Shown here: positions 10,324 to 23,129 of the stretch, in pieces
How positions within the stretch are numbered: the stretch's first letter is position 1
Layout: the number at the start of each line of letters is the position of its first letter
IMG/VR virus record: IMGVR_UViG_3300029288_000002
Coordinates: 1 to 64,000 of that record
Length of the DNA: 64,000 nt
Direction: 5' to 3' (one strand)
Source of the DNA: a virus
Lineage: Duplodnaviria > Caudoviricetes
Notes under the pieces: generated by a model
Told to the model about the DNA's origin: nothing
The model's database searches: none
What the model saw: the letters and a program-made list of their open reading frames with translations, nothing else
Position numbers and translations under genes: made by a program

Positions 10324-13300
10324 TTAAACTGAAAACGGTTTTGCTGTTCTGACAATACCGCGTGAACCTAAAGCACTATTCAATTTACCAACGACCTTAT
10401 TAGCTATTTTCTCTATGTCTGGTAAGACACTGCTATCAAGATTCCCTTGTACTGTTATTTCCATGACTTTGCCAATATTTGTTGCGGCATTGGCGATATT
10501 TGTTGCTGCTTGCCCCATCATAGATGGTAAAGTTTTAGTCATAAACGTGTTCATTTGTTGAGGATTTACCACTATCTCGCCATCTAATAACTTAGCCAAC
10601 TCTTCGTTGGATTTCATGGCAAATTGACCACCTACAACGCCCGATTTTACACCAGTATGTTTGCCGATAATACCGTTGCCATTCAGATCAAGACCGTAGT
10701 TTATTTCTTGCTGCCCCACATTAGATGTAGTATTGGCTAAAGAAGTGTCTAAATTACTAATAGCAGTTATCGTATTCGCTATTTCTTTTGCTGCGTTTTT
10801 GGCATTTTCAATAACTTCCAGCAATTTCAGCGAAGCATATTGATAATCTATTTGGTCATTAAGGTTCTTGTACTTCTCTAATACTGCGTATGTACTATCC
10901 CAAGCCTCTTTGACTGTAGCATCAATCCCGTCGCCATAAACTCTGTTCCATTCAATAAGACTCGCATAAAAAGCAGAAGACTTATTATTGATCATATCCA
11001 TTGCATCATTGGCAATCTGTCCGCTTTTCTCTAAATATTCTTCTATAACTCTGACTTTAGCGTCTATTACTGTTTCAAAATTCTTATAGTCTTGGTCAAG
11101 AGCTTCTTTTTCTTCGCTGTACTGGTGATCGCGTTGATACTTTGCTATTTCTTCTTTCTTTTTAGCTTCTTCATCTTGCAATGCTAATCTCTTTGCTTTA
11201 GCCTCTTCACTATCATCCATTGCTAAATCAATTAGCTCTTGCTGTATTGTAGCAAGGCTTTTGTTCTTATCTGCTAATTCGTCTTGAAAATCAGCTTCTT
11301 CTTTAAGATTATCAATATAATCTTTCTGAGTATCAATCAGTTTCTTAAAATCACTTAACTCAGTTTTCAGAGCATCTCTTTCTGCTTCTTTTTGCTGTTT
11401 TATCATTGATATTGTGATTTTAAGTAGATCGCCTAAAGCATCTAACGACTCTTTAGCAGCATCGCCTACATCTTTTGTGCTATCAGCCAAATCTTTTACA
11501 GCACTACTGGCTTTACCTGCAGTGCCTGTAATTTGATTAAACTTCTCTAAACCAAAAACATTAGCATTTAGTGTAAATGTTGTACTAAGTTCTGTAGCAC
11601 CTTGTCCTATTCCTTCAATAAAGTTAGCAATTTGACCACCAACATCACTACCAGAGAAGTCAATTTCAACGCCGTTCATAGACAAAACATTTATGTTTTT
11701 GCCAAAAACGTTAGCAGAAAGATCAAACTTTTCACCTGTTTGTTTGGGGTTAATGTTTATCTTTAAATCAAAGTTTCTAACAGTTTCGGCTAAACTATGT
11801 AGCATATTACCGATATTTGCCATTACATCACGAATAACATTTTGTACTGATATTGCTGTTTGTTGTGCCACTATTTCAAAGTTACCAGTACTTTGAGACA
11901 TATAGTTATATATGTCGTCTGATGTTTTTAGTATATTCCCCTGAACATCTGTAAACACTTCGCCAGATTGCGCGGCAGCATCAGCAACGATTCTCGTTTG
12001 TTCTTCGTAATCTTTTGTGCCGACTTGAATTGTTTCGTCTAATATTTTACCACGGGCAATATCTACAGACGATGCTAATTCTTGCATATTCTTTAGCTTT
12101 TCATTAGCAGCAGTAAGATTTTCTGTGTTTTTTATTCGTTCTGCACTATCTTCCGCGCTTTCATCACCATACCCCGCCATCATATTGTTTATAACGCCAA
12201 ATACATCTGTAAGTTTGGTAAGTTCACCCATATAGTCAACAATACCAATTTCACCAGAATCGAACATTGTATTTATTTGCTGTAATGATTCGCTTGCGTT
12301 ATAAACCAGTCCGCTAAAGAAGGTTTCGGCAGCTTCTTTGTTATCGCCAAATGTTTTCGTCATGTCAATACTTTCCAACTCGACTTTCAGTTGTTCAAAA
12401 TATTCATTTGACGAAATTACACCTTGCTCGTTTAGGTAATTAAGCTCTGTTAGTTGTTTGCCTATTTTCGCAAACTCTAAATTAACTTCACTGTAATCGG
12501 CTAAATCTATATCAGTAGTACTACCTGTTGTAGCAGTTAACGGTTTACTCTGAATCGCCATTAGCTTATTGGTTGCATTTAGTATATCTTGGAATGAATG
12601 AGCATACTCTTTATTATCCGGTGTTGCTCTTGCAACCTGATCTCGATAATTTTTCAATATCGCAGTTTCTTGTTCAGTAGCCCCTGCTGCCTCTCTCGCT
12701 ACTATTGCCTGATCTATTTTAGAAAGGTTATATTGTTTTACCGCATCTGTGTCTAATACAACCTGCCCACCTTCAACCTTTAAGGCTGAAATAAGGTCGG
12801 GATAAGTATTCATAAGATCAACAATATCAGTAAATTCTAATTTCCCTTCGAGAGCAGAAGAGCTTATTTTTGTTAGATTTGATATATCTTTGTTGAGCAA
12901 TGACAATGTTGAGGCTAAAGTTGAATATGCCTTATTTAGCTGTTCTATCCCCTCTACCATTGGAGAAACAATACCGTCTCGTATTTCTTTACCGTCTAAC
13001 AGCGATTGATCTTTTATTACGGACATTTCTGCTACAAAATGTTCAGCTAATACAATGGTCATACCATACATATTTTTACCAATGAGATCGCCGTTTTCAG
13101 ATATAGAAAGACCAACTTCGTTGGCAGCAGATATTATTTGGTCTTTATATTCTTGATAATTGGTAGAACTTTTTTGTAAAGCAATATTTAACTCAACTAA
13201 ACCCTTTTTAGCAATATCAGTATCGCTTACAAATGCCCACCCGAAAGCGTCCATACCACTTGCGCTTTCCCTTGCCGCTCTCATTGCTTTTATTGAGTTA

Positions 13301-16300
13301 GCATACGCATTAACTAAATCGCCAGCTTGTTTGCCTTCTTGTTGCAAGGATTTAAACATATTAGAAAAAGACGCTTCTACTTCTTTATTTCTTTTTTCTA
13401 ATTCTTGGCTTAATTCATATGCTTTAGTACCAGCATACACCATAGTAGTCAAAGCTATAACAAACAAACCTTGTGCAGCGTTTAATGCTAATTGAGCAAT
13501 TGTTTGTTTTACTGTTGCTCCCGTTAAACCAGTCAACATTGGTATAATGCTACCCAAAATACCAGGTAACGTTTTTATTAGAAACGTTTTGCTAACTTCA
13601 ACATTCAGCGCAATCATATCAATAACCAAAAGTTCAAGTATATCTACTACCATACGCAATGGCTCTGGTAGTTCGTCCACATAACCAATAATACCGTCCA
13701 AAGCATCTATCAAACCTATACCAACATCATATGCAGATTTGATAGCGTCTGAATTACCAATAAGCTGTACTAACTTTTCCCATGACTGTGTTAGTCTATT
13801 CGCTTTAGCTTCTACCGATTCAAGGTATATGCCAAAGCGTTGTGTTGCTGATCCCGTAGCGTCTTCTTGTATTTTTAAGAAGCCTACTTTACCAGCAGCG
13901 TTACCTATTACTTGGTCGTAGTTCGACATTAGGATCAAAAAATTTTCTCGCTGCCGGGTTGAATCTGTTACTTTTATGACTATCATGGTATACAATTACT
14001 TTATGATAGCGAATAGGAATCTCTTCCTACTTCTACAGTTTCATTATTATATTATATCTGTAGTCCAGATCATATCTTAGTCTTATTATAGACTGATGAC
14101 GTGGCTTTAGTTGTTACCAACTAAAGCCTGTTGATCGTTACGAGTTCTTATTTATAAACATTTTAAAAACATTGTCTAAGTTGTGTAAATCTTTTTCAAA
14201 TATTTCTATAAGAGGTATTTGACAATCCCTGCAAATAGCTCTTTTTATATTCATTCCTTCAACATAACTTTGCTTTTTAGGAAATCCGAAATATTCTACA
14301 ATAACATTGTCAATTACCCAATCGGTTCTTTTAAAACAACATCTTTCATCGTTGCAATATTTAGAATAATATTCTTCTTTCAAATAGTTTATTCCGTGTA
14401 AATATAAATAATCACATATTGCCACTTCTGCTTTTGAAAAACAATCATCCCCTCGCAAAGATGTTAGTATACTGTTTTCTCTTCCAAACGGAGAAAATAA
14501 AGTTTTTAATCCTACTGCTTTTTTTGCTTTTGTGTAACTTCCAAAATATCTCGCATATGCTTTTGGAGTCGGCAATCCGTACAAACTCAATTCAGCACCC
14601 AAAGGCGTTCTATTTAATTTAACAGATAGTTGTTTTAAATCTTCTAACATCTTTTCTTTATCATACCATTTTACACTCTTTTCTTTTGTTTTATGCAAAC
14701 CATTTTTCAAAGCCATTGTTCTTATACTATGAACTGCACGATTTGGAAAATACTTTTCTTTTAAATATTTGTTTGTGTAAAACGGATATACTTCCTTTAA
14801 AAGTTTCATATCCTCTTCAGTCCACTTTTCTACTCGTGTTAGATTTAGTTCTGACAATTTTTCATAAATTGTAAAAATATTTCTGCCTGTTTGTTTCGCA
14901 AGAGTTTCACAACTTTCTATTAGGTAATTATTCTTTAAATATTCAATTTCTTCTTCCGAAAATCTATACCCGTTGACCGTTATTCCTAACTCGGAGGCTT
15001 TATGGCGTATTGTATCCATTTTGTCTGTTTCTAATAATTTACACAATTTGTCATAGTTTCGAGTTGGATAAACTTCTCTTAAAATAGCTATTCTTTCTTC
15101 ATTCCAATGCCACTTTGTCATTATTATTCCTTTAAAATAATATTGTGATCAGCAACTTATTAAGGGATTGTTAATAAGTTTAAAATAAATGTTTATAAAC
15201 AAGTCTTCTCTCGGTATTGTCTGTATCCAGAGTTTCACCGATATGGTCATCTTCCAGTGATAATTACATCACCCGTATATCGCTATACGTTCTGGCACTC
15301 ATTTTACCAGCGATTGCAGCGGCGGTTGCGGATTTGTCTACATCAGTTAATGTGTTCCATTTCTTTGCAACATCATCTAACACATCTCCCATATTGCGGA
15401 ATGTGTCTTGACTATCTCTAATCTTAATATCGATTCTGGATAAAGCTCTTTCAACATCATTAATGCTTGCGCCTTCTTCATCCAATTTACCAAGTTTAAT
15501 ATTTTCCATGCGTGAGAACATTGTAGCGCACTTTGTTACTTTGCTATACAATAGCAAGGAGATACTTCTTCTGAAAGTGTCTTTACACTTGAGTATCTCT
15601 CACTATATTACTATAGTGATCAGACTGTTGCATTTTCATGTTTAAACATGAAATTGATTCGGTCAGTCTTTGCAACTGCACTCTATTATTAATAGATGCT
15701 TGTTGATCGTTATCCTCAATTAAGTAGGACTTTCGACATTAATTAGAATCAATTTTCATTAGAGTTTATGTGTTATGCTCTAATGCCTCCAACCCTTATC
15801 GGGAAAAGGAAGTTCCAATGGACTCCGCAGACCTTCTACTTATGGAACTCACAAGACCACAATCTGTTGCTTTTATGACCAATTTCATATTGGCGAGCAG
15901 GTATTTTTGCCTGCTTCCACACGTTCATTTAGGTTATATGTGTGGTTCGGAATAAATCATACCCCTCAAATAAGTAGGGGTGTTGGCGTGTGCATACTGT
16001 TACCAGGATGCAACTTATTCTCTACGGGTTCTGTTAATTGTCTAACAGCCTTGCCCTCGGAATCGTCCTGTCCATAGGAGTTTTTCCGATAAAAGCCAAC
16101 TTTACATTCATATATTACTATATGAAGACACTATTATTAATGTAAGCCACTAAGCGTTCCATACTTACACCCACGTTTTGTGCTGAAACAGCACTTCTTT
16201 GCATACCATCTGCTAATTCTGATGCACTGGTCGCAGCCACATTATCTCAAATCTGTTACTAAAGATTATGGCTAAATCTTTTAAGACCTATTTATTATAG

Positions 16301-17721
16301 GCGTTTAGGAATTTCTTCCTAAATCTGCAATTTTATACTTCGCATAGTATTTGCAGACCCGACTGAATATTAACCCTATTGTTGTAGGGTGATGACTTCA
16401 GAATATGTGTTACCACACACTCCCCGCAGTCTGTAGAGGTTCTCTATATAAATAGAGCCTTCCTTCGGTCTCTTCATTGCGAATTGACTTTGACCGATAT
16501 AGTCATCTGCTATCTGGTATAACCAGACCATATATTACTATATGTTTCGGCAAACTTTACCGCTATTAATTTATCCACCACGCCCACTGCATCTTTAGCT
16601 TCTAACTTGAAACCGTTAATAATACTCGTTAAATATTCCGTAGACTGAGCAGAATCCATATTGCCTAATTTAGATAACATCATAGATGCTTTCATTAACT
16701 CTGCTGATTCGGATATAGTCTTTCCCTGCCGAATCCAGGCCAAATTTCCTTCAGCAACTTCTAACGTAGTAGACCCTAACTCTTTAGCTAAACTATTATA
16801 ACTTTTAGCTAAACTATTAGCTTCATCTTTAGTCATACCCGTTACGACTCGCGCGTCAGTCATGGCTTTATCTAAATCTTTGATATACTGAACACCATTA
16901 CCTATTGCCTCTAATGCTCCGTTAATCAAACGAGAAGTAGCTGCAAACTCTACCGTAATCTTCATAGCATCGCCTAAACCAGTAATCCAATTACGAATAG
17001 AGAAGCCGCCAGACTTCAAAGAGGAATTTAGCACATCTAATTCTTTACTTAGTTTTCTTACCTTATCAATATCACCAGTACTTACTGCTGCCTTTAGTTG
17101 TTGTGCAATTCCTTTACCCTTTTCTACATCTGATCCGCCAATAGTTTTTGCCTTCTGTAGAAATTTATCGGCTTGAGTATTTGCCTTTTGCAGTTCTGCA
17201 TTTAGCGACTTTTCTCTGGCAATTTCGTTATCTGTATATTTGTTACTAACCAACCTAAACTCAGTTGCTTTTCCTGTTGCTTTAGATTCCTCTTCTGATA
17301 ACGACACCAGTTGATATTTTGCTGTTACTGCTCTTTGTAAAGCGTCTTGATATTGAATAGTGGCTCTGGTTACAGATTCACCGGTTACTTTATCTACATC
17401 AGTACTAACACTATATGACGCGACCTTAGTATTAACATTGGCGTTTATATCGTTGATTTTGTTTTGCAATTCTGTCAAAACATCTCTGGACTTTCCAACA
17501 TCAATTTTTATTTTTACATCTGCCGCTGAGGCTTTAGTTTTATCTATTTCTTGTTGTATGCCCGTTACAGCAGTTTTTGCTTGTTCCGCGCCCTGTGTAT
17601 TAAGTGTCACATTCAGATTAAAGTTATACTTCTTCTCTAACGCATCAATTTGAGACTGTATCTTACTTGCATCTAATACCGTCTCAAGCATTAGTCTATA
17701 TTTATTTGTATTTCCCGCCAT
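10324..17721 (-). CDS. tape measure protein, spliced from 5 exons (17721-16559, 16247-16140, 15859-15806, 15528-15306, 13959-10324); 1727 aa
   Basis: Exons total 5184 nt and join in frame: ...VDKLIAV|DNVAATSASELADGMQRS...LVAYI|GLVSSISRRSAESIGTSF|ATMFSRMEN...AAIAG|TRQRENFL..., a typical TMP core; long helical protein upstream of Dit. Confidence 0.9.
13960..15305 (-). mobile_element. group I intron 4 of tape measure gene (1346 nt) with endonuclease ORF looped out of P6
   Basis: P1 CUGGU|AAAAUGAGUGCCAG; P3 GAUGAC/GUCAUC; stem CUUGUUUAUAAACAUUU/AAAUGUUUAUAAAUAAG brackets the ORF; P7 ACGAUCA/UGAUCU; ends ...AGUAACAGAUUCA. Confidence 0.88.
14138..15121 (-). CDS. intron-encoded putative homing endonuclease
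   Basis: Repeated W/F-x-EE HTH-like units, 'KLNRTP...YARYFGSY' repeat, C-terminal 'S..E...RTDW...VEYFG' nuclease-like motif; own RBS AAAGGA inside intron 4. Confidence 0.8.
   Translation of the reverse strand: MTKWHWNEERIAILREVYPTRNYDKLCKLLETDKMDTIRHKASELGITVNGYRFSEEEIEYLKNNYLIESCETLAKQTGRNIFTIYEKLSELNLTRVEKWTEEDMKLLKEVYPFYTNKYLKEKYFPNRAVHSIRTMALKNGLHKTKEKSVKWYDKEKMLEDLKQLSVKLNRTPLGAELSLYGLPTPKAYARYFGSYTKAKKAVGLKTLFSPFGRENSILTSLRGDDCFSKAEVAICDYLYLHGINYLKEEYYSKYCNDERCCFKRTDWVIDNVIVEYFGFPKKQSYVEGMNIKRAICRDCQIPLIEIFEKDLHNLDNVFKMFINKNS
15529..15805 (-). ncRNA. group I intron 3 of tape measure gene (277 nt, ORF-less, lacks P7.1)
   Basis: P1 CCUU|...GAGG; P3 AUUGAUUC/GAAUCAAU; P6 CAAC/GUUG; P7 AAGACUG/CAGUCU; ends ...AGUAACAAAGUG. 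Confidence 0.85.
15860..16139 (-). ncRNA. group I intron 2 of tape measure gene (280 nt, ORF-less)
   Basis: P1 ACAU|UAAUAAUAGUGU; P3 GUUGGC/GCCAAC; P4 UCGGAA/UUCCGA; P7 GAGAAUA/UAUUCC; ends ...AGCAACAGAUUG. Confidence 0.9.
16248..16558 (-). ncRNA. group I intron 1 of tape measure gene (311 nt, ORF-less)
   Basis: P1 CGGU|AAAGUUUGCCG with U.G; P3 GAUGACU/AGUCAUC; P4 UCGGUC/GACCGA; P7 CAGACUG/CAGUCG; P7.1 hairpin; ends ...AGUAACAGAUUUG. Confidence 0.9.
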
Positions 17722-17734
17722 TTATCCTCCTTCT

Positions 17735-18784
17735 TTATTCACTTGGAGGATTCTCCTCCGGTACAGATTTCATTTTGTCAATCTCTTCTTGCATTTTGAT
17801 CAACTCTTTCCAACTTTTATCTGCAAATGTAGTATCATCATATACCTTTACCATATCTGCTGATTCCCACCCAAATATCTGTTGAATAAACTCGTGGGGC
17901 ATACCCAACTTAGACAGATACGTTGCGGCATAATGCCTGAGTGCATGTGGGTAAAATGGAACACCAACTATATCTTCGTAGTCTCTAATCCACGACCTTA
18001 CAGTTCCTTCTATAGCAGGAGTCCCGTCTGGTTTTACAAAAAGATAGTTGTGGTTCACGTGTCCTTTGTCTAATATCTTTCTGCGTTCTGGTATCCACGC
18101 CATATAATATGGTGCAAACAATTTCTTGATAATATATTTGGTCAGCATTTTACCACTTTTCGTTCTGCCTTTTGTTTTGATAGGCTTCTTACATTCAATA
18201 AATAGTCCGTTGAATTGAGTATGGTCTAAATCAATAATGTCCGTTGTAAATAATAGCAATTCGGCAAACCTCGCTCCACTTGCAATGGCTAACGTAAACC
18301 AGCAGGCTTCTTGATACTTCTTTTTATTCCAAAGATATTGCAATAGAACATCAATTTGCTTTTCGCTAAATATGGTTTTACTTCTAACACTGTCTCCTTT
18401 AGCTGGTTCAATAGTCTTCAAAATAATATTTCTAAAATTAGGAAATTCGTCATCTCTAACTTTCTCAATATAAATACTCATAGATGACAGACACGAGCGC
18501 ATTCTGTTAAATCGGTTACTACCCCATTTCAAAGTAGTAACACAAAAACCAAAATAGTTTATTAAGTCTGTCTTCTTAATATCAACGAAAAATTTATTGT
18601 CTGCATAATCTAAAATCCAGGTAAAGAATATAATCAAATCAGAATGATAGTTGTTGATTGTTTTATCACTGGCATTGATATTCTTTGCACGCAAAAAGGA
18701 CTCCATAAGATTCATGTTTGCAGGGTTGATTAACGCAGTTTTCTCTTTTGACGTTGTTTTTAGTTGAAACGTATTTCTTGGCAT
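17735..18784 (-). CDS. tyrosine recombinase / integrase-family protein
   Basis: SGARFAELL (R), KTKGR (K), HALRH, FGW, VKVY (Y). Confidence 0.9.
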   Translation of the reverse strand: MPRNTFQLKTTSKEKTALINPANMNLMESFLRAKNINASDKTINNYHSDLIIFFTWILDYADNKFFVDIKKTDLINYFGFCVTTLKWGSNRFNRMRSCLSSMSIYIEKVRDDEFPNFRNIILKTIEPAKGDSVRSKTIFSEKQIDVLLQYLWNKKKYQEACWFTLAIASGARFAELLLFTTDIIDLDHTQFNGLFIECKKPIKTKGRTKSGKMLTKYIIKKLFAPYYMAWIPERRKILDKGHVNHNYLFVKPDGTPAIEGTVRSWIRDYEDIVGVPFYPHALRHYAATYLSKLGMPHEFIQQIFGWESADMVKVYDDTTFADKSWKELIKMQEEIDKMKSVPEENPPSE

Positions 18785-18791
18785 TTCAAAA

Positions 18792-19271
18792 TTAGCCTTC
18801 TTCCCAGGCTATTACTCCTTGTTTATAAAAATAAACTATACCCAAAGCGAAACTATCACTTTGGTCAGTGTTCTCGAATTTAATATTGAACTTTCTTTCT
18901 AATACTTCTAACAATTCTTCTTTCTTTGCAGTGCCTTTTCCTGTTATAATTTTCTTGATAGTAGTAGGGGCATAAGTAAACAACTCACAATCTACAAAAA
19001 GATACTCCACAACTCCTCTGAGTTTGTAGAGTATCTGAGTGCTAACATTGTGTCGTGTAAAGCCGTTTTCTATCACTAAAACTGTGATCTCGTGCTTTGC
19101 TCTCAATTCAAGCAATTTGCTTGCAATTAGCTTCAATCTTTCCCCATGTGTTATACTAACTCCTTTGATTTTAGCTTCTGTTGGTATGCTAAAACAGAGT
19201 TCTAATTCTCCGTTTTCTTTAAATAAAGATACTCCTGTATTAGATAGGGACAAATCCAAGCACAATACCAT
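18792..19271 (-). CDS. ruvC: RuvC-like Holliday junction resolvase
   Basis: LCLDLSLSNTG, VIE, PTTIKKIITGKGTAKKEE, DQSDS. Confidence 0.85.
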   Translation of the reverse strand: MVLCLDLSLSNTGVSLFKENGELELCFSIPTEAKIKGVSITHGERLKLIASKLLELRAKHEITVLVIENGFTRHNVSTQILYKLRGVVEYLFVDCELFTYAPTTIKKIITGKGTAKKEELLEVLERKFNIKFENTDQSDSFALGIVYFYKQGVIAWEEG

Positions 19272-19283
19272 TTTATTTTCCTA

Positions 19284-19910
19284 TTATATTTCAGTAATTA
19301 TTAGTGCAGTATCAGCAGTAATATCCACTTCACCGCTTATTGTATATGCCCGTAATTTAACAACTGTGTCTACTGTAGGAGTAATAATTCCCATGTCTCC
19401 GCCTTTTGAACCGGATGTTGCTGCGCCATACGGATATAAACCCATTATAACAGTGTTGGGTATTATTACATTTGAAGAATCCACTATTGCCAATGTGGCA
19501 TAATCAGCCGTAGACTCATCTACTCCAAAAACGCACGTGAAAGAAATAGCATATGTTTTTCCACCCACAAGAGTTATAGAAGGCGTAGTAAAATCAATAT
19601 TTCCAGTACTATATTGAAACGATATGTCCTCTGCCCCACCCTCTGTTGTTAGTATTTGCATCGCTGTTTTCTTAACATACAGATATGTTCTATCTTGTTT
19701 TACTCCGACCACAGGTGATAAATTTAGCCAATCACTACCATCCCATTGATATAGTAAACTATTTGCAACACAATATCTACCAACAGTTTTGCGTTCAGGA
19801 TGAGTCGTATCAAACCAAGTATCTCTATCTCCAGTTGTTGCAAATATTTCATACGGGTCTACACTAATATGAATTGCACTTGCCGCTAATCCTCGTGCTA
19901 TTAAATCCAT
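19284..19910 (-). CDS. hypothetical, possibly virion-associated protein
   Basis: 208 aa with GGAGG RBS; beta-rich C-terminus. Confidence 0.5.
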   Translation of the reverse strand: MDLIARGLAASAIHISVDPYEIFATTGDRDTWFDTTHPERKTVGRYCVANSLLYQWDGSDWLNLSPVVGVKQDRTYLYVKKTAMQILTTEGGAEDISFQYSTGNIDFTTPSITLVGGKTYAISFTCVFGVDESTADYATLAIVDSSNVIIPNTVIMGLYPYGAATSGSKGGDMGIITPTVDTVVKLRAYTISGEVDITADTALIITEI

Positions 19911-19958
19911 TATACCCTCCTTTGGTCTTACTCTTCCTGAAACTTGCTATAAGGAAGT

Positions 19959-20291
19959 TTACTTAGTAAAATTAGCAGTTACGGTTACATAACCACCAGA
20001 TACACTTGCTACTCTCGCTCTAACTTTGTAAAACGCTGATACATCCCCACTATATAATGCAAACGATACTAACGAAGATGACATGGACAATGTTCCCAAA
20101 TTCATCACTGATACAGGGTAATACGTAGTCGAAGTGTTGCACAATAAACATTCTATTACTACTTCAAACGCTGTAGCTGTTCCTGTTACTTCAAGATTAA
20201 TTTGTTTCATGTCATTGATAACCGTAGAAACACCGTTTGCAGGTGCCACAACTGCACTTTGCAATACAATACCTTCTTTAAACGCTGTCAT
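19959..20291 (-). CDS. hypothetical small beta-rich protein
   Basis: Start moved to MTAFKEG (20291), which has an AAGGAG RBS. Confidence 0.55.
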   Translation of the reverse strand: MTAFKEGIVLQSAVVAPANGVSTVINDMKQINLEVTGTATAFEVVIECLLCNTSTTYYPVSVMNLGTLSMSSSLVSFALYSGDVSAFYKVRARVASVSGGYVTVTANFTK

Positions 20292-20312
20292 ACTATTCTC
20301 CTTTCCTCGCAC

Positions 20313-21137
20313 TTACAATTCTAATTTTGGTTGATTTTTATACTTGGCTATTCTGCGTTCGGCCAAATCACAGTATTCTTGGCTAACATCAAACCCAATA
20401 TAATTTCTATTGTTTAATACAGAAACTTTTCCTACAGTTCCCGAACCCATAAAGGGGTCTACTATTAAATCACCAGGCAAACTCCAAGAAAGCAAATGAT
20501 CTTCTACTAATTGCTCTGGAAACATTGCTGGATGTTCATATGCCTCTTTATCTTCAGTTGTGTGCATATAACCAGAGTCATAATGCCATATGCAACCGCG
20601 AGTCTTTGTTGGTCTTAAACAAGACTCTTCAACTCGTTTAATTCCTTTTTCGTCTAGTCTTGTTACTCTTCCGTCTGGTTGTCGTAAAGATTTTGTTTTT
20701 GCTTGATTTGGTTTAGTATTATATATCTTTGGAATCTTCAAAGGATTAAATGTTTTAACTTTTCCTTTAGACAACACAAACATAAATTCAAAGTCTTGAT
20801 TATATCTAACCAAAGCAGTATAAGGAATGTATCTATGAAATATCATGCTATCCCATATATTATACCCTAACTCTTTAAAACGCAGCACTTGTTTATATGG
20901 TACACATTCCTCACTTCCTCTGGTTGTTTTATCACCCACTACCCACACTACTACGCCACCAGGTTTTAATTTTTGCAACAATATTGTGGCTAGAGCATCA
21001 AAGTCCCAAGAATAAGAGTGATATTGCCGAAAATCTGCATAGGGGGGAGAGGTAATCACCAAATCAATGCAATTATCATCCAACAATTTCATTCCTTCTA
21101 CATTATCCATACAATAAATTTTGTTCAGTTCAAGCAT
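20313..21137 (-). CDS. DNA methyltransferase (N4-C/N6-A, beta class)
   Basis: TSPPY motif IV, HPAMFP, DPFMGSGT motif I; start MLELNK with GGAAGG RBS. Confidence 0.9.
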   Translation of the reverse strand: MLELNKIYCMDNVEGMKLLDDNCIDLVITSPPYADFRQYHSYSWDFDALATILLQKLKPGGVVVWVVGDKTTRGSEECVPYKQVLRFKELGYNIWDSMIFHRYIPYTALVRYNQDFEFMFVLSKGKVKTFNPLKIPKIYNTKPNQAKTKSLRQPDGRVTRLDEKGIKRVEESCLRPTKTRGCIWHYDSGYMHTTEDKEAYEHPAMFPEQLVEDHLLSWSLPGDLIVDPFMGSGTVGKVSVLNNRNYIGFDVSQEYCDLAERRIAKYKNQPKLEL

Positions 21138-21165
21138 ATTTCCTTCCAAAAACGACAAAAATATT

Positions 21166-21195
21166 AAAAATAGCTTCCGAAACGGAAGCTATTTT
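21166..21195 (-). terminator. intrinsic terminator
   Basis: AAAATAGCTTCCG-TTT-CGGAAGCTATTTTT on the minus strand. Confidence 0.8.
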
Positions 21196-21224
21196 GTGTG
21201 TAAAACCAATGTTTTAGTTATAAT

Positions 21225-21545
21225 TTAAATAATGTTTGCATCTACTAACCATAAATTATTTGTGACAAATTCTACTACAGGTAGAACGCATTGTTTAGTA
21301 AAACATTCGCGCCGCCACCGAAATCTTCCGCAATACACAATGTCAACTACAAATCCTGTTTCAATACGCTTTATTAACAACAATTTAGACTCGCTTCTCT
21401 TCTTAGAAACAATCGCCGTTTTGCATATCCACAAATTATAATTTTCATCAACCATCATTTCGTCTGGATTAATAAAGCCGAAGTCGTCTATTTCCATATG
21501 CTCAACATCTAACTCTTCAAACTTTTTTGGTAATTTGGCGTTCAT
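21225..21545 (-). CDS. hypothetical protein
   Basis: 106-aa ORF in a tightly packed unit. Confidence 0.6.
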   Translation of the reverse strand: MNAKLPKKFEELDVEHMEIDDFGFINPDEMMVDENYNLWICKTAIVSKKRSESKLLLIKRIETGFVVDIVYCGRFRWRRECFTKQCVLPVVEFVTNNLWLVDANII

Positions 21546-21547
21546 AT

Positions 21548-21757
21548 TTATTCGCTTGTTTGACTATCAAACAACTTATTTCCAAACAAGTCTTCTGGAA
21601 ACTGTTTATTATATCCAGCTACCACAAAATTATTCATTTCTGTTCTAAAGAATTTTAGCACAAAATAACAATATACAATTTCGTGAACCCAATCCTTGAA
21701 ATTGCAACAGTAAATACTTCTCCCAGGCACTTTCCATTCACACGTTTTAGTATCCAT
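21548..21757 (-). CDS. hypothetical protein
   Basis: Start MDTKTC with AAGGAG RBS. Confidence 0.55.
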   Translation of the reverse strand: MDTKTCEWKVPGRSIYCCNFKDWVHEIVYCYFVLKFFRTEMNNFVVAGYNKQFPEDLFGNKLFDSQTSE

Positions 21758-21758
21758 T

Positions 21759-22265
21759 TTACTCCTTCTTATATTGATATTGTATAACATTAACAACCTT
21801 TACAACGGGCAAATATGTATTAGCAAACAATTGTACATTCTTTTCAGTATTGCTTTTATCATCATAACTTAAAACAATAATGTTACTCTTTTCCCATCTA
21901 TGTATAACAGTATAAAAGTCAAAAGCCGATATGAAATGATCTTCATCTTTTACAAGTTCTGAAAATATATCTTTTTCTACAAAATCATTAACATAGTCAA
22001 TAACATCTTTTGTAAGTTTAGTTGCTTTATTTACCACGTCATTATAAAAAGTTAAGGTGTGTTGTTTTGGAAATTCTTCCCATATATCCGCATCAGCCAT
22101 AATAGCATATATCTCACCAACAATATTGCCAGCAATAGCCAACGAAAGCGAACCAGTCAATCTATCTACTGCAATCTTTGGCACAATCATATTGATGCGA
22201 TAAGCTAAACGCATTAGCTTTTCAACTCGTTCATTTCCTAATACTTCTCGTTCTGAGTTAACCAT
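21759..22265 (-). CDS. hypothetical protein
   Basis: 168 aa, AAGGAG RBS, own promoter. Confidence 0.65.
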   Translation of the reverse strand: MVNSEREVLGNERVEKLMRLAYRINMIVPKIAVDRLTGSLSLAIAGNIVGEIYAIMADADIWEEFPKQHTLTFYNDVVNKATKLTKDVIDYVNDFVEKDIFSELVKDEDHFISAFDFYTVIHRWEKSNIIVLSYDDKSNTEKNVQLFANTYLPVVKVVNVIQYQYKKE

Positions 22266-22299
22266 ATTTACTCCTTTTAGAATATTGTCTTACATTTGA

Positions 22300-22328
22300 A
22301 TTATAGCACAATTACAATATTCTGTCAA
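22300..22328 (-). promoter_or_regulatory. sigma70/sigA-type promoter
   Basis: TTGACA-17 nt-TATAAT with TG extension. Confidence 0.85.
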
Positions 22329-22337
22329 GTAGCAATA

Positions 22338-23129
22338 TTAGAACAACGACTCATCTTCTTTCATTAACCTTTGTCTTGCAATTTTACAATATTCTTCTTC
22401 TTTCTCTATTCCCCAACATTCACGCTTTAGCCGCTTTGCAGCTACAAGAGTTGTACCAGAACCACACGTAAAATCTAAAATAGTGTCGCCTTCTTTTGTA
22501 TATGTAGAAACCAAATATTCCATTAATTCTATTGGCTTTTGTGTTGGATGAAAAGAGTCCTGATTATTATTTGAAAACTTTATTACACTTCTTGGATACC
22601 GCTCCCCTTTATTATCGTTAAATCCGAGATACTCTTTTCTGTTACCTTTTTCCACATATCCAACACGAGGATCAGTAGCGTGTTTTTTATAATATGGTTT
22701 TCCTTGACTCATTTGAGGATAATATAGCATTTTTCGTTTGCTTCCATTTGCAGTAGTTCCGTTTGAAAATACCGATATAATTTCATGTGCTTTCAAGGGC
22801 TTATTTTTAGAATTTAAAAAATCTGACGCCCTTGTCTTTTCATAAATCCAATCGTATTTAAACCAATCAATATTTGACAATCTAAGATGACTACTGAATG
22901 GTTCAGTACCAAAAAGAAGTATTGCGCCTCTATCAACAATCAGTCCTTTTATACAATCCCACATAGGCTCAAATGAAATAATGTTATCCCATGCCGGAGT
23001 TATTGTACCGTAAGGAGGGTCAGTTAGTATCGAACTGAATTTTAAACCCTTTTCTACCATCTCTCTCATTACATCTAAACAATCGCCGTGAACAAGTGTA
23101 CAATACTCGTCTTCATAATAAACGTTCAT
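22338..23129 (-). CDS. DNA methyltransferase (N6-A/N4-C, beta class)
   Basis: TDPPY, HPTQKP, DFTCGSGTT. Confidence 0.92.
   Translation of the reverse strand: MNVYYEDEYCTLVHGDCLDVMREMVEKGLKFSSILTDPPYGTITPAWDNIISFEPMWDCIKGLIVDRGAILLFGTEPFSSHLRLSNIDWFKYDWIYEKTRASDFLNSKNKPLKAHEIISVFSNGTTANGSKRKMLYYPQMSQGKPYYKKHATDPRVGYVEKGNRKEYLGFNDNKGERYPRSVIKFSNNNQDSFHPTQKPIELMEYLVSTYTKEGDTILDFTCGSGTTLVAAKRLKRECWGIEKEEEYCKIARQRLMKEDESLF

Follow-up and report, generated by a model that had tools for sequence, protein, structure and literature searches.

How is a phage tape measure protein made when the conserved core of its gene is interrupted several times within a few hundred nucleotides? This question is raised by a locus in the virus record IMGVR_UViG_3300029288_000002, a sequence of 165,307 bp with direct terminal repeats, 34% G+C and a completeness estimated at 100. 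Its first 64 kb were analyzed and are referred to here as the window. The tape measure protein (TMP) gene occupies minus-strand positions 17721 to 10324, and the open reading frame (ORF) list of the region holds just three large pieces of 403, 327 and 1223 amino acids (aa). In the account that we favor, to which we assign a probability of roughly 0.87, four group I introns lie inside or at the end of the conserved PF10145 core of this gene, and only the fully spliced mRNA would encode TMP.

Removal of the four inserts joins five exons into 5184 nucleotides (nt) that form a single frame of 1727 aa with one stop at its end. The exon sequence between the first and last introns amounts to 385 nt (108 + 54 + 223). 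Matches to the PF10145 (PhageMin_Tail) profile are distributed over these exons in order, with profile positions 2-83 on exon 1 (residues 310-386), 87-119 on exon 2 and 146-201 on exon 4. Seven intronless TMP homologues (35-41% identity) were found with exon 1 as the query and were used in tblastn comparisons. Successive segments of these queries map to exons 1, 2, 3 and 4 in all seven cases, and among the matches listed exon 5 is also reached by three of the seven. E-values extend down to 9e-8 for exon 2 and range from about 1e-16 to 6e-22 for exon 4, and exon 3 is 59-76% identical to the homologue segments that lie between those for exons 2 and 4. At the junction of exons 4 and 5, the motif AG-x-RQ is present without an indel in 60/60 aligned homologues, and the window reads AGTRQRENF. 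The gene has the features of a TP901-type tape measure, with PF10145 on exons 1, 2 and 4 and tail genes adjacent; the distal tail protein (Dit) gene adjoins it directly downstream, and 160 longer homologues, many of them named TMP, are found. The first-pass annotation had proposed group I introns clustered in the conserved core of TMP, with exons 2 and 3 missed by the ORF track and a 1727-aa frame restored by splicing. The interruptions and the restored frame are confirmed, the spliced frame is collinear with intronless TMPs, and the group I interpretation is supported. The lengths that the annotation gave for the four introns and three internal exons, and its coordinates, are exact.

Each interruption closes the upstream frame soon after it begins. 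An in-frame stop is encountered no more than 17 codons past the 5' splice site in every intron, and therefore unspliced RNA cannot yield the full-length protein. Neither exon 2 (36 codons) nor exon 3 (18 codons) has its own start codon or ribosome-binding site. Other sources of the interruptions were also considered, namely inteins, group II introns, translational bypassing and gene pieces translated one by one, and are ruled out by the in-frame stops, the size of the elements and the absence of starts and ribosome-binding sites.

Three of the introns have numerous relatives from which a consensus structure can be drawn. A 17-nt motif from the intron 3' ends and a P4 motif each occur at more than 100 IMG/VR loci, and 19 distinct ORF-less IMG/VR relatives were aligned to represent the family of introns 1, 2 and 4 (alignment A2). 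RNAalifold finds P3, P4, P5, P6, P7.1, P8, P9 and P9.1 in this alignment; P2 and the pseudoknotted P7 were added to its structure, and pairs were then counted. In the completed structure 96.0% of cells are paired, versus 32-40% after a shift of the 3' partners by one to three columns. Compensatory changes occur at 47 of the 62 pairs, and the observed measures are reached by none of 500 shuffles. The changes are spread over P3 (5/6 pairs), P5 (4/4), P6 (6/8), P8 (5/5) and P7 (2/6), where the G-C, A-U, C-G and U-A pairs are invariant and the two outer pairs covary. P7.1 is a 10-bp helix capped by a GNRA loop, with compensatory changes at nine of its ten pairs. The helices follow one another in the order P1-P2-P3-P4-P5-P6-P7-P7.1-P3'-P8-P7'-P9-P9.1-P9.2, which we take to be that of subgroup IA in the Michel-Westhof classification.

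A one-base bulge stands beside the P7 G-C pair in 19/19 relatives (alignment columns 198-204 with 275-280), and in introns 1-4 of the window the bulge is likewise followed by G-C and then A-U. This combination of bulge and G-C pair is the arrangement of the guanosine-binding site. P7 is formed by GAAUA/UAUUC in intron 2 and by GAUCA/UGAUC in intron 4, and the strands that flank P7 are similar to the R and S elements of the RF00028 consensus (AGACU..., AUA.AGUC).

Two covariance models, R1 (from the R element to the 3' end) and R2 (from P1 to the R element), were built from IMG/VR relatives only, with no window sequence included. R1 matches introns 1, 2 and 4 at full length, with E-values of about 1e-24 to 1e-28, and together R1 and R2 cover these three introns from end to end (Table 1). 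No further copies of the family were found with the models elsewhere in the 165-kb genome. Introns 1, 2 and 4 are interpreted as paralogues within a single group IA-like family, and this family is widespread among uncultivated phages.

Table 1. The interrupted TMP gene of the window: exons, introns, the intron-borne ORF and matches to covariance models R1 and R2
Feature	Position	Strand	Description	Basis	R1 match	R2 match
TMP exon 1	16559..17721	(-)	387 codons + 2 bases of Val codon	translation
TMP exon 2	16140..16247	(-)	108 nt	PF10145 + tblastn
TMP exon 3	15806..15859	(-)	54 nt, ...VSSISRRSAESIGTSF	tblastn
TMP exon 4	15306..15528	(-)	223 nt	PF10145 + tblastn
TMP exon 5	10324..13959	(-)	1211 codons + stop, begins TRQRENFLILMSNY	ORF list, spliced frame, 60-homologue alignment
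Intron 1	16248..16558	(-)	311 nt, group IA-like, without ORF, ends ...AACAGAUUUG		123.4 bits (E 3e-28), 16438-16246 (-)	87.5 bits, 16566-16426 (-)
Intron 2	15860..16139	(-)	280 nt, group IA-like, without ORF, ends ...AACAGAUUG		108.0 bits (E 2e-24), 16027-15857 (-)	59.0 bits, 16146-16015 (-)
Intron 3	15529..15805	(-)	277 nt, group I subtype without P7.1, ends ...AACAAAGUG
Intron 4	13960..15305	(-)	1346 nt, group IA-like, ORF in P6 loop		122.3 bits, 14143-13958 (-)	63.9 bits, 15311-15175 (-)
Intron-4 ORF	14138..15121	(-)	327 aa, homing-endonuclease-like, P6 loop

Similar clusters of introns occur in TMP genes of other phages. The closest parallel is a 52-kb IMG/VR phage contig (IMGVR_UViG_3300037493_002946, hereafter L065) that shares 59% identity with the window in TMP exon 1. 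Four R1 matches and three R2 matches fall within 2.8 kb of this contig (L065:3945-6757), and its TMP core likewise holds four group I introns, two of them at the codons occupied by introns 3 and 4 of the window. An endonuclease-bearing intron of L065 is located two codons upstream of the intron-1 site, and another is inserted at ATSAA/ELAK, a site that is vacant in the window. Its internal exons measure about 33, 134 and 226 nt, the shortest of them at the site vacant in the window. The four-intron arrangement, as predicted from these matches, is not unique to the window.

Less complete parallels are found in two large IMG/VR phage contigs of 128 and 175 kb, each of which has three introns of the family within about 1.8 kb, beside TMP-like exons (L172:8453-10259 and L140:2188-3929, respectively). 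Thomasclavelia phage TR-TP1 also carries an unannotated family intron in TMP (PQ571309.1, 28535-30047; R1 135.6 bits), and within this intron lies a gene annotated 'HNH endonuclease'. Three consecutive TR-TP1 genes, which bear the annotations 'tail length tape measure protein', 'HNH endonuclease' and 'hypothetical protein', appear to represent one TMP split by this intron. A second R1 match in the same genome (71917-72090) scores 36 bits, with an E-value of 6e-7.

Intron 3 belongs to a different but related subtype. R1 and R2 do not match it with default filters, and with the filters off R1 aligns just P7 and the 3' tail (16.5 bits). Comparison of the spliced TMP core with multi-intron loci by tblastn places an insert of about 290 nt in L065 at the identical TMP codon. 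This insert (L065:5910-6201) is one of three homologues of intron 3, and the other two, L377 and L378, were retrieved with a pattern common to the window and L065 inserts. The structure of the four-sequence alignment (A6) contains P2, P3, P4, P5, P6/P6a, P7, P8, P9 and P9.1, with 96.9% of cells paired and compensatory changes at 30 of 68 pairs, versus 2-7 in slid controls. P3 of intron 3 is UUGAUUC/GAAUCAA and P7 is GACUG/CAGUC, and its P4 and P5 helices are reduced to 4 bp each. P7.1 is absent from intron 3 and its three homologues, and therefore intron 3 falls outside the P7.1-bearing subgroup IA and represents a different subtype. Another pairing, with P7 as GAUCA/UGAUC and a P1 lacking the U.G pair, was considered for intron 3 and is overruled by the R1 alignment and the homologues. 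Pattern scans with the R elements of introns 3 and 4 and with the R...S pair of intron 3 returned chance matches alone.

At its 5' splice site, each of the four introns, of either subtype, forms a P1 helix that contains a U.G pair: CGGU/GCCG in intron 1, ACAU/GUGU in intron 2, CCUU/GAGG in intron 3 and CUGGU/GCCAG in intron 4. The same U.G pair is evident in 18 of the 19 IMG/VR relatives, whose 5' ends were read by eye. P10 is also present in 4/4 introns. The P1 U.G pair, P3 and P7 that the first-pass annotation had ascribed to each intron are thus all recovered, P3 and P7 by covariation in A2 and A6 and, for introns 1, 2 and 4, by the R1 and R2 alignments. Introns 1, 2 and 3 end in G (omega-G), normally an invariant base, whereas the terminal base of intron 4 as delimited there is not G but A (A13960).

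The four inserts are mutually different in sequence, and a 12-nt palindrome, TATAGYRATATA, occurs four times in the window, once per intron, versus 0.16 copies expected. A hairpin consisting of palindrome TATAGTAATATA with a GUAA loop constitutes P2 in intron 1 (16531-16546) and intron 2 (16111-16126), both on the minus strand. It also constitutes P2 in intron 4, as TATAGCGATATA. In intron 3 the TATAGTAATATA/GUAA hairpin (15604-15621, minus strand) corresponds to P9, not P2. Nucleotides 94-108 of intron 3 are identical to the R element of intron 4 at 14 of 15 positions, and within intron 3 they form P4'/P6. The shared hairpin and R-like segment suggest an exchange of modules between neighboring introns.

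Intron 4 is the only one of the four that carries an ORF, which is looped out of P6. The predicted 327-aa protein contains PF18780, the 'homing endonuclease associated repeat' (E-value 2e-11), and Atlas clusters of PF18780 viral proteins match it with a score of 0.97. A nuclease domain is hinted at near the C-terminus, which bears a weak resemblance to the same end of the annotated 'HNH endonuclease' from the TR-TP1 intron (27% over 118 aa, E-value 0.024) and gives weak leads to DUF2726 (E-value 0.15) and to DUF559 clusters (0.84-0.85). A search of the PDB with this ORF yielded no match, and no close relatives of it were found in IMG/VR.

Taken together, these features suggest a conventional route to the intact message. 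Each intron would fold after transcription and bind guanosine at its P7 G-C pair. The RNA would then be cut at the P1 U.G pair and the exons ligated, and the fully spliced mRNA alone would direct synthesis of the 1727-aa ruler protein. If the introns are self-splicing, tail assembly would depend on four splicing events, and the putative endonuclease of intron 4, if active, would be consistent with homing into conserved TMP sites. At the usual 0.15 nm per residue, 1727 aa would correspond to a tail of about 260 nm, although this figure is rule-of-thumb arithmetic.

Several observations pull in the other direction. RF00028 gives no match at its gathering threshold or at E-values up to 10 when the window, a 3.5-kb region or intron 1 alone is searched. 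The experimentally proven introns of T4, Twort and SPO1 are not matched significantly by R1 (the best E-value is 0.054 in T4 and about 0.1-0.9 in Twort), which finds nothing in LL-H, JCL1032, r1t, Bastille or DT1. No experimentally studied member of the family of introns 1, 2 and 4 was found. The fold of intron 3 is based on four sequences. It was derived from the sequence of intron 3, and this raises the proportion of paired cells but does not inflate the compensatory changes in the other three sequences. Finally, intron 4 has A at omega, and the G-C and A-U pairs of its P7 are canonical, so that they offer no compensation for the missing omega-G.

The silence of the Rfam model is a failure of sensitivity, because RF00028 misses 17 loci that bear the family. 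In this control, the model is silent at the family marker sites of all 17 marker-bearing loci, including the Thomasclavelia phage locus. Its lone match among them (L023:1139-1489, minus strand) is a different intron located about 600 nt from a family 3' motif, and unrelated intron lineages therefore co-occur in that contig. A study of Bastillevirinae likewise describes the Rfam and GISSD models as incomplete and prone to miss introns of phages (PMC11878797). When the region was compared with 50,697 phage genomes by megablast and blastn, the only match was one of 63 nt between the 3' end of intron 2 and Thomasclavelia phages, and blastn with family member L079 returned nothing. The covariance-model search envisaged in the first-pass annotation is accordingly negative with RF00028, which proves to be insensitive, and positive for introns 1, 2 and 4 with models built from their relatives.

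Intron 4 is the weak point of the interpretation that all four introns splice, because its omega position is occupied by A. The intron ends in ...AACAGAUUCA (13951-13975, minus strand), where A13960 precedes the codons ACC CGG CAG, and P1 places its 5' splice site after GGT. The R1 alignment assigns the omega-G column of the model to C13961. In the Tetrahymena ribozyme, a change of omega-G to A strongly impairs the second step of splicing and activates nearby cryptic sites. Candidate explanations for the A are an error or variant, inefficient ligation, use of a cryptic G, or tolerance of A. It is possible, but on balance unlikely, that introns 1-3 splice normally while intron 4 is defective in ligation, with the outcome that splicing is inefficient or shifts to the next in-frame G, or that A13960 reflects a mistake in sequencing or assembly, or a minority variant. 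The unchanged guanosine-binding pair in P7 is compatible with such a defect, and just one junction, after G13954 and 6 nt downstream, retains the frame together with the P1 U.G pair and a terminal G. Splicing there would give a TMP of 1725 aa, but it would remove the Thr-Arg that is present in 60/60 homologues, where the window sequence conforms exactly. A junction at G13965 has good P10-like pairing, yet it breaks the frame. All lines of evidence (protein homology, P10 and the L065 orthologue) point instead to a predicted 3' junction at 13960/13959 with omega A. P10 is paired with ACCCG at four of five positions. In L065 the orthologous intron, which lacks an ORF, is arranged as ..GGT, intron, ..AAATG, GTT CGG CAA, with a G right before the xRQ codon. 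The second P10 pair differs on both sides between the two introns, U-A in L065 and C-G in intron 4, which is a compensatory change. A lethal mutation in the consensus is also unlikely for a genome with direct terminal repeats and a completeness of 100. A metagenome scan for P9.1 of intron 4 yielded one chance match, in coding sequence, and no sibling genome. We consider it rather improbable that intron 4 is a natural intron that ligates with omega A despite a canonical P7 G-C pair, its 3' site being set by P10 and P9.0, or that an inefficient second step throttles late production of the tail ruler. The omega-A intron is a natural test case for how 3' splice sites are defined.

Two further alternatives concern the whole locus. 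The introns could be structured selfish elements that have lost the ability to splice unaided and depend on a protein cofactor from host or phage, for instance a maturase encoded by the intron-4 ORF. The lack of an experimentally tested relative and the short P4 and P5 of intron 3 would be compatible with this idea, but neither the core helices nor the conserved junction sequences are disrupted, compensatory selection acts on them in many phages, and three of the four introns have no ORF; we regard it as very unlikely. There is still less reason to view TMP as a fractured gene or pseudogene, with pieces that are translated on their own or remain untranslated, or as an artefact of assembly. Two exons devoid of translation signals, a perfect exon order and frame, and the same organization in the independent contig L065 make this exceedingly improbable, and a collapsed repeat is excluded because the four inserts differ in sequence. 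Splicing of all four introns, with intron 4 the least secure, therefore remains the preferred explanation.

The setting of the gene is also unusual. Directly upstream of TMP (window positions 17735-23129, minus strand) are genes for an integrase-like tyrosine recombinase (349 aa), a RuvC-like resolvase and two DNA methyltransferases, and this block is an odd insertion into the tail gene block.

The locus illustrates the density at which homing introns can settle in a single conserved domain, here in a late gene that is essential. Between them, the window and L065 have six to seven distinct insertion points in about 390 nt, and their smallest exons are 54 and 33 nt, respectively. Introns 1, 2 and 3 each interrupt a codon after its second base. 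Omission of exon 2, exon 3 or both would preserve the frame and shorten TMP by 36, 18 or 54 residues, and such exon skipping is made possible by introns that lie close together and share a codon phase. There are also consequences for annotation. The standard Rfam model misses a lineage of group I introns that is abundant in phages, and because of this the TMP genes of such phages are annotated as fragments, as in TR-TP1. Gene callers will miss exons such as 2 and 3 and under-predict tail length.

Several known systems resemble this one in part. The T4 td intron, of subgroup IA2, has extra P7.1 and P7.2 helices between P7 and P3', and its endonuclease ORF is looped from P6. Intron 4 has the same layout, with its ORF in P6, whereas the td host gene functions in nucleotide metabolism and T4 yields no significant R1 match. 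The first-pass annotation had held that phage group I introns are best known from DNA metabolism, with fewer cases in late genes, which is accurate but understates the precedent for TMP itself (PMC2504315, PMC10448857). In Bacillus cereus-group prophages, TMP is interrupted by the group I introns TMP-IVS1, IVS2, IVS3a and IVS3b (Tourasse & Kolsto 2008, PMC2504315). These introns are of group IA, as introns 1, 2 and 4 appear to be, and like those of the window they lie in frame in conserved parts of a TMP, here one of more than 1200 aa; paralogues at different sites vary mainly in P1, only some carry an endonuclease gene, and stops are encountered early (PMC2504315). Unlike the window, with its four introns in 385 nt of exon sequence, the prophages are described as having three sites and at most two introns per gene. 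This comparison is by description alone, and JCL1032, in which R1 finds nothing, is listed with a TMP intron in the same paper (PMC2504315).

A TMP broken by an endonuclease-carrying intron is also found in Vibrio phage ICP1, where the intron contains an HNH endonuclease gene and splicing has been demonstrated by RNA-seq and reverse transcription PCR (Barth et al. 2023, PMC10448857). As predicted for the window, the gene needs splicing of its transcript; unlike the window, ICP1 has a single intron, belongs to another phage lineage and encodes a different class of endonuclease. Genes with several introns are known from Staphylococcus phage Twort, whose orf142 is described as having three group I introns and exon skipping (Landthaler & Shub 1999, as cited in PMC11878797), and from polymerase and terminase genes of Bastillevirinae, which have up to three introns and a mini-exon (PMC11878797). 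Exon skipping has been reported for SIOphi as well as for Twort. As in the window, several introns are crowded into one essential gene, the internal exons are short, and loops carry ORFs for homing endonucleases or, in the window, for a protein that resembles them. Their splicing has been established by experiment, whereas that of the window introns is predicted from sequence, and the window differs in its host gene, TMP, in having four introns rather than three and, as judged by R1, in intron lineage. In a phrase search of the literature, which was not exhaustive, none of the titles indicated a phage gene that contains four group I introns. Introns in TMP and phage genes with three introns have thus already been published, and the locus described here is a new, dense case of a known kind.

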